Assembly (NCBI RefSeq): GCF_003334335.1
Contig: NZ_QOWQ01000015.1
Strand: one strand, 5' to 3'
Length of the DNA stretch: 64,000 nucleotides
Source of the DNA: Escherichia coli
GTDB lineage: Bacteria; Pseudomonadota; Gammaproteobacteria; Enterobacterales; Enterobacteriaceae
Part shown: in pieces, positions 6,234-7,246 of the stretch
How positions within the stretch are numbered: the stretch's first letter is position 1
How the letters are laid out: the number at the start of each line of letters is the position of its first letter
Notes under the pieces: model-generated
Databases searched by the model: none
The model's input: only the letters and a program-made list of their open reading frames with translations
What the model was told of the DNA's origin: nothing
Translations under genes and position numbers: made by a program

Positions 6234-6452
6234 AGACCGGTTGGTGGCAGTACTGACCGGTCTGTGATGAAAGATTAATTTCACCTTAAATCCTGGTGCT
6301 GTTAGGATGCTGACGTTTTTCGGCTACACCATTCAGATTATGCAAATAAATATCTCTGAATATAATATATTCATAGCACCCATAATTCATCCTGGGCGAT
6401 AACTAAACCATTTTTGAGTAATAAATGAAACAACTGCAACACTCTTATTATT

Positions 6453-6475
6453 TCTGGAAAACGCCTCGCAAAAAC
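6453..6475. repeat. Conserved upstream motif TCTGGAAAACGCCTCGCAAAAA, copy 1 (upstream of yiiE)
   Basis: Exact 22-bp match to 6891-6912, each preceded by AACTGCAAC and each 115-137 bp upstream of an RHH gene start. Confidence 0.7.
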
Positions 6476-6567
6476 AAAACAACATGCAAAAATCCGCTTT
6501 TTTTAAATGATTTTCCGGCGTAATTTTCGCACATACATTAATGAGTAATATATGTAAGGTATTGGTA

Positions 6568-6786
6568 ATGGCGATGAATACGGTTTTTCTTCATTTATCA
6601 GAAGAGGCAATTAAACGGCTGAACAAGCTTCGGGGCTGGCGTAAGGTTTCACGATCTGCAATTTTACGCGAAGCGGTAGAGCAATATCTGGAACGTCAGC
6701 AATTCCCGGTGCGTAAAGCAAAGGGAGGCAGGCAAAAGGGGGAGGTAGTTGGTGTTGATGATCAGTGTAAGGAGCATAAGGAATGA
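6568..6786 (+). CDS. yiiE: Ribbon-helix-helix (CopG/MetJ/Arc-like) putative transcriptional regulator
   Basis: ORF track 6541..6786; in-frame ATGs at 6541, 6568, 6574; 6568 gives 72 aa; RHH-like core LSEEAIKRLNKLRGWRKVSRSAILREAVEQYL. Confidence 0.75.
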   Translation: MAMNTVFLHLSEEAIKRLNKLRGWRKVSRSAILREAVEQYLERQQFPVRKAKGGRQKGEVVGVDDQCKEHKE

Positions 6787-6890
6787 CAAAAATTTTTCAT
6801 TCTTGAATATAAAAAACAGATGCCCTTATTCTGGTATTAATACAAGGCTGTTTTACTTGAACTTATAATAACTGCAACTGTTACATCATA

Positions 6891-6912
6891 TCTGGAAAAC
6901 GCCTCGCAAAAA
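6891..6912. repeat. Conserved upstream motif TCTGGAAAACGCCTCGCAAAAA, copy 2 (upstream of yiiF)
   Basis: See copy 1; the repeat unit of about 440-460 bp spans upstream region plus RHH gene. Confidence 0.7.
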
Positions 6913-7027
6913 TAAAAAATGATGCGTAAATGAGCTTTCTTTAAAGATTCGGCAAGGGTACTTTTCTCTCCATAGATTCAAAAATGATATTGGCGAGATA
7001 TTTATGAACTCTCTGGCAGGTATAGAT

Positions 7028-7246
7028 ATGGGCAGAATTTTACTCGATTTATCGAATGAGGTGATTAAGCAACTTGATGATCTCGAGGTGCAGCGTAATC
7101 TTCCTCGTGCGGACCTATTAAGGGAAGCGGTAGATCAATACCTGATAAATCAATCGCAAACAGCAAGAACCAGTGTTCCTGGCATCTGGCAAGGGTGTGA
7201 GGAAGATGGTGTCGAATATCAGCGTAAGCTGCGCGAGGAATGGTAA
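7028..7246 (+). CDS. yiiF: Ribbon-helix-helix putative transcriptional regulator, paralog of yiiE
   Basis: ORF track 7004..7246; start at 7028 gives 72 aa; core [32 protein letters not shown] aligns with YiiE. Confidence 0.75.

Follow-up and report, generated by a model that had tools for sequence, protein, structure and literature searches.

The window analysed here is a 64-kb stretch of E. coli K-12-like DNA in which the genes follow the order yihY, dtd, yiiD (fabY), an AT-rich gap (5716-6567), yiiE, yiiF, REP-like elements, and fdhE-fdoI-fdoH on the minus strand. yiiE and yiiF (Table 1) are usually listed merely as predicted CopG-family regulators. A literature search found no functional studies of either gene. 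Both products contain the N-terminal RHH DNA-binding domain of RHH-type VapB proteins, as judged from Pfam RHH_1 (PF01402; E = 1.6e-11 for YiiE and a weak E = 0.0093 for YiiF) and from homology to structures 2K5J and 7BY2. Like the CopG/Arc/MetJ repressors of PF01402, YiiE and YiiF have an N-terminal beta-strand followed by two helices, with weak profile matches to the CopG structures 1B01 and 2CPG. Unlike these repressors, they carry an antitoxin-typical C-terminal extension and lack a plasmid copy-control context. Scores against NCBIfam NF008671 ('LexA regulated protein', YbfE-like CopG) are 17-19 bits, below the curated cut-off of 62 bits. The yiiF start at 7004 aligns with the start codon of its orthologs, and the 72-aa K-12 annotation begins at 7028. 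The 80-aa sequence of the solution structure PDB 2K5J is 100% identical to YiiF; it was deposited as 'uncharacterized protein yiiF', under a molecule name that makes no link to a toxin partner. The islet around the two genes is hypervariable and AT-rich and also holds several other TA-like cassettes.

Table 1. Features of the yiiE/yiiF locus, with positions in the window.
Feature	Position	Strand	Basis
Upstream repeat arm 1, regulatory region of the yiiE unit	6429..6528	+	
Motif copy 1, 5' of yiiE	6453..6474	+	Exact match; 1 mismatch versus cross-genus consensus TGGAAAG-NNN-CTCGCAAAA
Proximal block of yiiE, AATGAGTAATATATGTAAGGTATTGGTA	6540..6567	+	Aligned with vapB promoter/operator block
yiiE, 72-aa RHH protein, paralog of VapB-type antitoxins	6568..6786	+	ORF; Pfam RHH_1
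Relic of a second vapC, yiiE unit (probable; weak in K-12)	6783..6866	+	Homology read by eye
Upstream repeat arm 2, regulatory region of the yiiF unit	6867..6966	+	
Motif copy 2, 5' of yiiF	6891..6912	+	Orthologous to the motif 5' of vapB in other genera
Degenerate proximal promoter/operator block of yiiF, TGATATTGGCGAGATATTTATG	6985..7006	+	Alignment with the intact block of relatives
yiiF, 80-aa RHH protein, orphaned VapB antitoxin	7004..7246	+	PDB 2K5J identity; ortholog synteny
vapC pseudogene of the yiiF unit	7246..7539	+	Alignment to intact E. coli vapC (L046), blastn pieces
REP/BIME-type insertion splitting the vapC pseudogene, 157 nt	7262..7418	.	Alignment gap

A sequence-only reading of this DNA had described yiiE and yiiF as tandem paralogous RHH genes, and the protein alignment agrees (41% identity over 56 residues, E = 3e-12). 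Its proposal that the duplicated module takes in the upstream region is borne out by pairwise alignment, which reveals a 100-nt direct repeat of 73% identity with a start-to-start period of 438 nt. Each repeat arm contains one copy of TCTGGAAAACGCCTCGCAAAAA. This 22-mer occurs exactly twice in the 64-kb window, both times on the + strand; no further match was found there at up to 3 mismatches, and there was none in 100 shuffles. The two copies are identical, as had been claimed, but the end given for the first, 6475, was one base too long. AACTGCAAC precedes both copies, and the motif starts lie 115 and 137 nt from the start codons of the 72-aa reading frames, matching the distances first proposed. 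In contrast, the description of the C-terminal tails as unrelated did not hold: the 3' DNA aligns in frame, the TGA stop of yiiE falls opposite the last Trp codon (TGG) of yiiF, and tail columns Q63, E66, G69, V70, K75 and E79 are invariant in a 10-sequence alignment.

The 22/22 identity of the two motif copies is specific to this allele, as other E. coli strains carry TTCTGGAAAACGTCTCGC, TTTGGATGCCGTCTCGC or TTTGGATGCAGTCTCGC 5' of yiiE. The upstream alleles are mosaic. Together, these two observations are consistent with gene conversion between the copies, by which the K-12 motifs were probably homogenised. Synonymous divergence among alleles is unusually high, and two rearrangement junctions adjoin the motif 3' end. 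With a 68-nt query containing the motif, a search in which isolated 22-nt copies are undetectable, we found a median of 2 places per E. coli genome, essentially at the yiiE/yiiF locus only.

The guess that proteins of such size are typically antitoxins proved correct. A VapC partner gene is found in relatives. Orthologs of yiiF show about 56-76% identity (tblastn), with 70-79% among the closer matches in Citrobacter, Salmonella, Klebsiella, Enterobacter, Serratia and others. Between yiiD and fdhE, both C. freundii and S. enterica subsp. diarizonae carry the ortholog with a 124-aa PIN-domain gene immediately after it, the stop and start codons overlapping. The genes, earlier suggested as possible orphan regulators, have a traceable pedigree. 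The synteny search proposed at that time, run on one genome per species (37 loci), places a PIN-domain VapC gene directly 3' of yiiF orthologs. About 30 non-Escherichia species share the order yiiD, alpha/beta hydrolase (minus strand), vapB (yiiF), vapC, fdhE, and the pair occupies the yiiD/hydrolase-fdhE site in Citrobacter, Salmonella diarizonae, Klebsiella, Enterobacter, Kluyvera, Trabulsiella, Lelliottia, Kosakonia, Franconibacter and others. In Cedecea the vapB-vapC pair is present, with no yiiD or fdhE match in the stretch examined. At least 57 of the 5,426 complete E. coli genomes retain the arrangement yiiE-yiiF-vapC-fdhE, and their vapC is annotated as encoding a VapC family toxin.

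The K. pneumoniae VapBC complex (PDB 7BY2/7BY3; Kang et al. 2020, J Med Chem, PMID 33146528, as cited in PMC11117207) is the orthologous module. The VapB of these structures is identical to the product of the syntenic K. pneumoniae gene, which sits in the same order, yiiD - hydrolase - vapB - vapC - fdhE. This VapB is an 82-aa CopG/RHH protein that aligns with YiiF end to end (E = 3.2e-29; ~65% identity by tblastn), and the K. pneumoniae VapC is ~80% identical to intact E. coli VapC. Compared with this system, K-12 lacks the toxin, has a degenerate -10 element 5' of yiiF, and carries the extra diverged paralog yiiE; species with a single copy have no yiiE-type paralog.

The statement that no toxin gene is adjacent was incomplete. 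No intact PIN-domain toxin ORF is present 3' of yiiE or yiiF in the window, but vapC fragments adjoin yiiF. That only fragments are left marks the locus as a relic and not a functional VapBC module. The yiiF-linked relic (vapC-profile match E = 0.006) begins with an ATG at 7246 that overlaps the yiiF stop codon (TAATG). It retains vapC nt 42-107 at 7419-7483 (74% identity) and a 3' end at 7483-7539 that has suffered a 15-nt deletion, LEVVTRNTRD-----GVVTPYEL* (5 aa missing). Further damage consists of an internal deletion of ~213 nt and an in-frame TAG at 7480-7482. Partial Rfam matches to REP-derived naRNA4/ES036, below the gathering score, are located at 7291-7430. Strain USVAST219 (L002) has the same vapC deletions and no REP insertion, which indicates that the decay was stepwise. 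A second relic probably follows yiiE. Here an ATG at 6783 overlaps the yiiE stop (ATGA) and opens the short frame MTKIFHS*, and GATGCCCTTATTCTGG at 6819-6834 matches the PDAxILA segment of VapC. The K-12 region 3' of yiiE alone gives no significant match to the VapC profile (E = 3.6). In USVAST219-type genomes (n = 565) the fragment 3' of yiiE, LEHKINMPDAFILASIRLNLCSLTG, matches VapC positions 82-106 (E = 2.6e-4). Orphan antitoxins have been reviewed as degraded type II TA loci in which the antitoxin outlasts the adjacent toxin and toxin fragments can still be detected (PMC7354431). yiiF resembles them in keeping such fragments alongside; unlike the reviewed cases, two tandem copies survive at yiiE/yiiF.

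Overall, we suggest that the yiiE/yiiF locus is very probably the decayed remnant of a tandemly duplicated type II VapBC module between yiiD (fabY) and fdhE. The 5' part of the ancestral unit would have comprised a distal conserved motif, ~75 nt of poorly conserved DNA and a proximal extended -10 promoter with an overlapping palindrome; the 3' part would have been a near-leaderless vapB (RHH antitoxin) translationally coupled to vapC (PIN RNase toxin). Duplication in Escherichia would have produced yiiE + vapC followed by yiiF + vapC, and both toxin genes would later have been lost by deletions, in the K-12 lineage also by REP/BIME insertion. yiiF would then be an orphaned VapB, and yiiE a diverged paralog with a strictly conserved DNA-binding domain and a drifting toxin-binding tail. 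The toxin relics and the position of yiiE in E. whittamii, where it lies directly in the ancestral position adjoining the hydrolase/LexA-box side, together argue that the whole vapBC unit was tandemly duplicated in Escherichia before both toxins disappeared.

One could also expect yiiE to be a separate horizontal acquisition, that is, a second vapBC-like module inserted beside yiiF and not an in-place duplicate. Such an origin would fit the protein identity of only 41%, the confinement of YiiE homologs to Escherichia/Shigella, the hypervariable, cassette-bearing character of the islet and the high synonymous divergence of its alleles. However, the yiiE and yiiF units have the same architecture and the same distal motif at similar distances, the 73% identity extends over 100 nt of non-coding upstream DNA, and the in-frame homology continues up to the stop codon. 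Apart from itself, YiiE is most closely related to the syntenic VapB proteins (45-57% over the RHH core), and no YiiE-like gene was found at other loci. We consider a separate acquisition unlikely.

In vapC-positive relatives the proximal block has the intact form TGATATACTGGAGGTATATATG, which combines an extended -10, the start site, the palindrome ATATAC-N5-GTATAT and the start codon, with a column conservation of 0.94. In these relatives both the -10 and the start site are overlapped by the palindrome, which is degenerate in K-12 yiiF. The -10 of yiiF reads TATTGG in vapC-negative E. coli alleles versus TATACT in the vapC-positive allele. For K. pneumoniae vapB ('yiiF', KPN_04185), a supplement of PMC3415461 lists a start site supported by 4 reads, 4 nt before the ATG and 3' of TGnTATACT. 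Since this site falls inside the proximal block, the block is the promoter and the vapB mRNA is nearly leaderless. For yiiE and yiiF of E. coli, the text supplements of PMC3415461 list no start site; this and the degenerate -10 suggest that yiiF may be poorly expressed. In the corresponding block of yiiE, TAATAT at 6546-6551 is a candidate -10-like element. yiiE has been reported as H-NS-bound and mildly induced (2.5-fold) by SlyA overexpression (PMC5797941), and it is among the SlyA gSELEX targets (PMC6134199). A weak RpoS gSELEX peak has been assigned to the yiiD-yiiE spacer (PMC5493296). By our coordinate conversion, the RpoS peak lies well upstream of the motif.

RHH antitoxins of type II TA systems normally autoregulate, and an operator over the -10 and start site is the classic position for such autorepression. 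By the sequence-only reading, YiiE and YiiF would be two orphan autoregulated RHH regulators, each using the shared 22-bp motif as its operator. Autoregulation as the norm among RHH antitoxins speaks for this, and the motif is the best-conserved element common to both upstream regions and is conserved across genera. However, the motif has neither a palindrome nor an internal repeat, and it lies ~100 nt 5' of the mapped promoter, at ~-107 to -86 relative to the K. pneumoniae start site. It is identical in the two units though the beta-strands differ (TVFLHL in YiiE versus RILLDL in YiiF). In RHH proteins the beta-strand residues read DNA; hence one specific operator shared by YiiE and YiiF is unlikely. 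In strain MS 110-3 a further copy even stands 5' of an unrelated pair encoding a hypothetical protein and NadS. The conserved palindrome over the -10 and start site fits an operator better and is the likelier candidate. An autoregulatory role of the 22-bp motif is thus improbable. Under the VapBC-remnant interpretation, YiiE and YiiF would still form RHH dimers, each repressing its own promoter through the proximal palindrome.

Nor is the 22-bp motif a product of the duplication; it is an ancestral element found across genera, with the consensus gATTyTGGAAAG-NNN-CTCGCAAAAg at a fixed distance of 133-135 nt 5' of the MGRILL codon. Column conservation averages 0.90 in the motif and 0.50-0.53 in the intergenic columns beside it, and the motif is kept in Trabulsiella, where the neighbouring hydrolase gene is missing. 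As judged from the cross-genus alignment, the motif is older than the yiiE/yiiF duplication, is an ancestral upstream cis-element of the vapBC module, and is kept by selection. Our best guess is that it represents a putative host-factor site or an auxiliary upstream site modulating the vapB promoter, and not the primary operator.

We compared the motif with known promoter elements and regulator sites. A sigma-54 (RpoN) -24/-12 promoter, TGG-N9-TCGCA with the variable positions in the spacer, is one such candidate. TGGAAAG NNN CTCGCA resembles the sigma-54 consensus TGGCACG-N4-TTGCA in spacing and conservation pattern, the GG-N10-GC spacing of -24/-12 elements is present (TGGAAAACGCCTCGCA), and conservation of the motif ends just 3' of the -12-like element. 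A weight matrix trained on 50 published ChIP-seq sites, however, gives the K-12 motif 3.7 bits, below the leave-one-out training minimum of 4.7 (median 14.7), and ranks it 329 among the 127,968 17-mers of the window; the motifs of other yiiE alleles score below 0. A published site, that of fdoI at 8968, is recovered by this matrix. An A at -22, as in the motif, occurs in 0 of the 50 sites, CCGG replaces CTGG in E. whittamii, and published sigma-54 ChIP-seq and gSELEX lists include no peak at yiiE or yiiF. On the matrix score, the -22 base and the peak lists we reject a sigma-54 promoter at the motif as exceedingly improbable.

Other candidates fared no better. The scan for a sigma-70 promoter was negative at the motif, with no conserved -10 3' of it. 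An informal comparison by eye with the consensus sequences for sigma-32, sigma-E, sigma-28, LexA, IHF, Fis, CRP, PurR, Cra, FadR, SlyA and others produced no fit. A structured leader RNA was rejected given a consensus fold of -1.1 kcal/mol and z-scores of -1.3 to +1.7. No Rfam family covers the motif, and the sole Rfam matches are the partial REP-like ones described above. The motif is spanned by a mini-ORF in C. freundii (MILESGSQK*), for which other species lack a start or stop codon. Matches in viral contigs (80 in total) look unrelated or due to chance, which speaks against the motif being part of a phage or mobile element. A specialised recombination site was likewise rejected: the yiiF deletion junction in L001 and L045 is explained by microhomology, CGC(A/G)AAATA being shared by the motif and the 3' end of vapC.

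The two proteins differ in the selection acting on their halves. The 5 yiiE alleles compared encode one and the same RHH domain (codons 1-52; 0 amino-acid changes) at dS of 0.03-0.30, and the YiiE tail undergoes near-neutral drift (dN/dS about 0.2-1.8). For the RHH domain of YiiF, dN/dS is about 0.13-0.36; the YiiF tail is conserved, being nearly identical to the tails of VapC-linked orthologs; the YiiE tail is homologous but diverged. Because its RHH domain is invariant despite dS of up to 0.30, YiiE has probably kept its DNA-binding ability and is probably still a working DNA-binding protein. That YiiE pairs an unchanging DNA-binding domain with a tail that drifts suggests that it was retained to bind DNA and not as an antitoxin.

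Both antitoxins might alternatively be kept as anti-addiction modules against the VapC of incoming plasmids or phages. An anti-addiction role is established for orphan antitoxins generally (review PMC7354431), and the YiiF tail, the presumed toxin-binding region, is still conserved after the loss of vapC. However, no genuine enterobacterial plasmid was found to carry a close homolog of VapC or YiiF. At ~50% identity, the most similar pairs on plasmids come from Rhizobium and Burkholderia; the 'plasmid' matches in E. coli and Klebsiella are chromosome-sized records. None of the 80 viral-contig motif matches lies near a VapB or VapC relative. We regard an anti-addiction role as distinctly unlikely.

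YiiE may have gained other targets. It is conceivable, though rather doubtful, that YiiE was domesticated after losing its toxin and has been kept as a transcription factor acting on targets of its own, and that the 22-24-nt motif is a putative site for a conserved host regulator. If so, this regulator would couple expression of vapBC (now yiiE/yiiF) to a cellular signal.

K-12 is commonly described as lacking VapBC. Under the VapBC-remnant interpretation, two long-standing K-12 y-genes would acquire a definite origin and a function that can be tested. The locus is an ordinary but neatly resolved decayed VapBC duplicate, not a new kind of system, and general principles are unchanged by it; the distal motif is a genuine conserved element and poses a small, well-defined question. 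Intact, partly deleted and REP-invaded VapBC states coexist in E. coli, so that stepwise decay is caught midway, and one duplicated antitoxin is under purifying selection solely on its DNA-binding half. The locus thus offers a convenient natural series for how antitoxins become orphaned or recruited as regulators.

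The gap between yiiD (fabY) and yiiE is a hypervariable islet, as seen when the window is compared with L001 (E. coli MS 110-3), L002 (USVAST219), L003 and L046 (a locus with an intact E. coli vapC). At least 80% of window 5716-7575 is common to only 1,986 of 5,426 E. coli genomes. The K-12 islet consists of AT-rich DNA and a truncated ORF, annotated as partial in RefSeq, and the islets of other strains variously contain an alpha/beta hydrolase gene, a hypothetical protein and NadS pair, DUF6708 genes, and transposases or IS elements. Sequence common to the strains restarts near 6190, shortly 5' of a hairpin-like inverted repeat.

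Toxin-antitoxin cassettes appear to gather at this site. TA-like pairs there are a HigB toxin gene with an HTH gene in S. enterica diarizonae and E. whittamii, and NadS with a hypothetical 103-aa protein in E. coli MS 110-3; a copy of the 22-bp motif (TGGAAAGCGCCTCGCA) lies ~125 nt upstream of the NadS pair.

Coordinates of features in the window and in compared loci
Feature	Locus	Position	Sequence
Hypervariable islet	window	5716-6430	
Truncated ORF	window	6075-6191	
Inverted repeat	window	~6236-6262	
REP pair	window	7291-7430	
fdoI sigma-54 site (IS47)	window	8968-8984 (-)	CTGGCGCGAATTCTGCA
Third high-scoring 17-mer	window	59343	CTGGCACAGTTGTTGTA
metF-katG sigma-54 site (IS48)	window	60463-60479 (+)	TTGGCGCGAATATTGCC
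HigB-HTH pair	S. enterica diarizonae (L007)	2036-2790	
HigB-HTH pair	E. whittamii (L045)	~1320-2085	
NadS pair	E. coli MS 110-3 (L001)	1033-1635	
LexA box	L005	3812-3827	near-consensus
LexA box	L001	~806-821	near-consensus
LexA box	L045	~2310-2325	near-consensus
LexA box	L007		near-consensus

In some E. coli and E. albertii strains, the N-terminal RHH domain of YiiE is joined to the YiiF tail (proteins P0094, P0097, P0100 and P0102). Such chimeras are what a deletion or an unequal crossover between yiiE and yiiF would be expected to yield. Among E. coli alleles of each gene (window, L001, L002, L003, L045, L046), synonymous divergence is 0.1-0.37. This seems high within one species and suggests that the allelic lineages are old or that alleles were imported from related species. 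Enterobacterial yiiF loci were also found on contigs labelled Bacillus coahuilensis (L009, 100% identity to E. coli YiiF), uncultured Robinsoniella (L010, 93%) and Chryseobacterium sp. (L029, with the enterobacterial order yiiD-vapB-fdhE); contamination or mislabelling of these assemblies is the probable explanation.

A BIME-like pair of REP sequences matched two REP-derived sRNA families of Rfam, naRNA4 and ES036, in part and below threshold. Elsewhere in the window, the sigma-54 weight matrix recovered the published intragenic site in fdoI and the metF-katG site, the latter matched to its published counterpart by sequence; a third 17-mer also scored high.

In many genera, the alpha/beta hydrolase gene and vapB diverge from a spacer with a conserved, near-consensus LexA box (CTGTATGGATATACAG, CTGT-N8-ACAG) next to -10-like and -35-like blocks, which suggests that the hydrolase is SOS-regulated. 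K-12 lacks the box.
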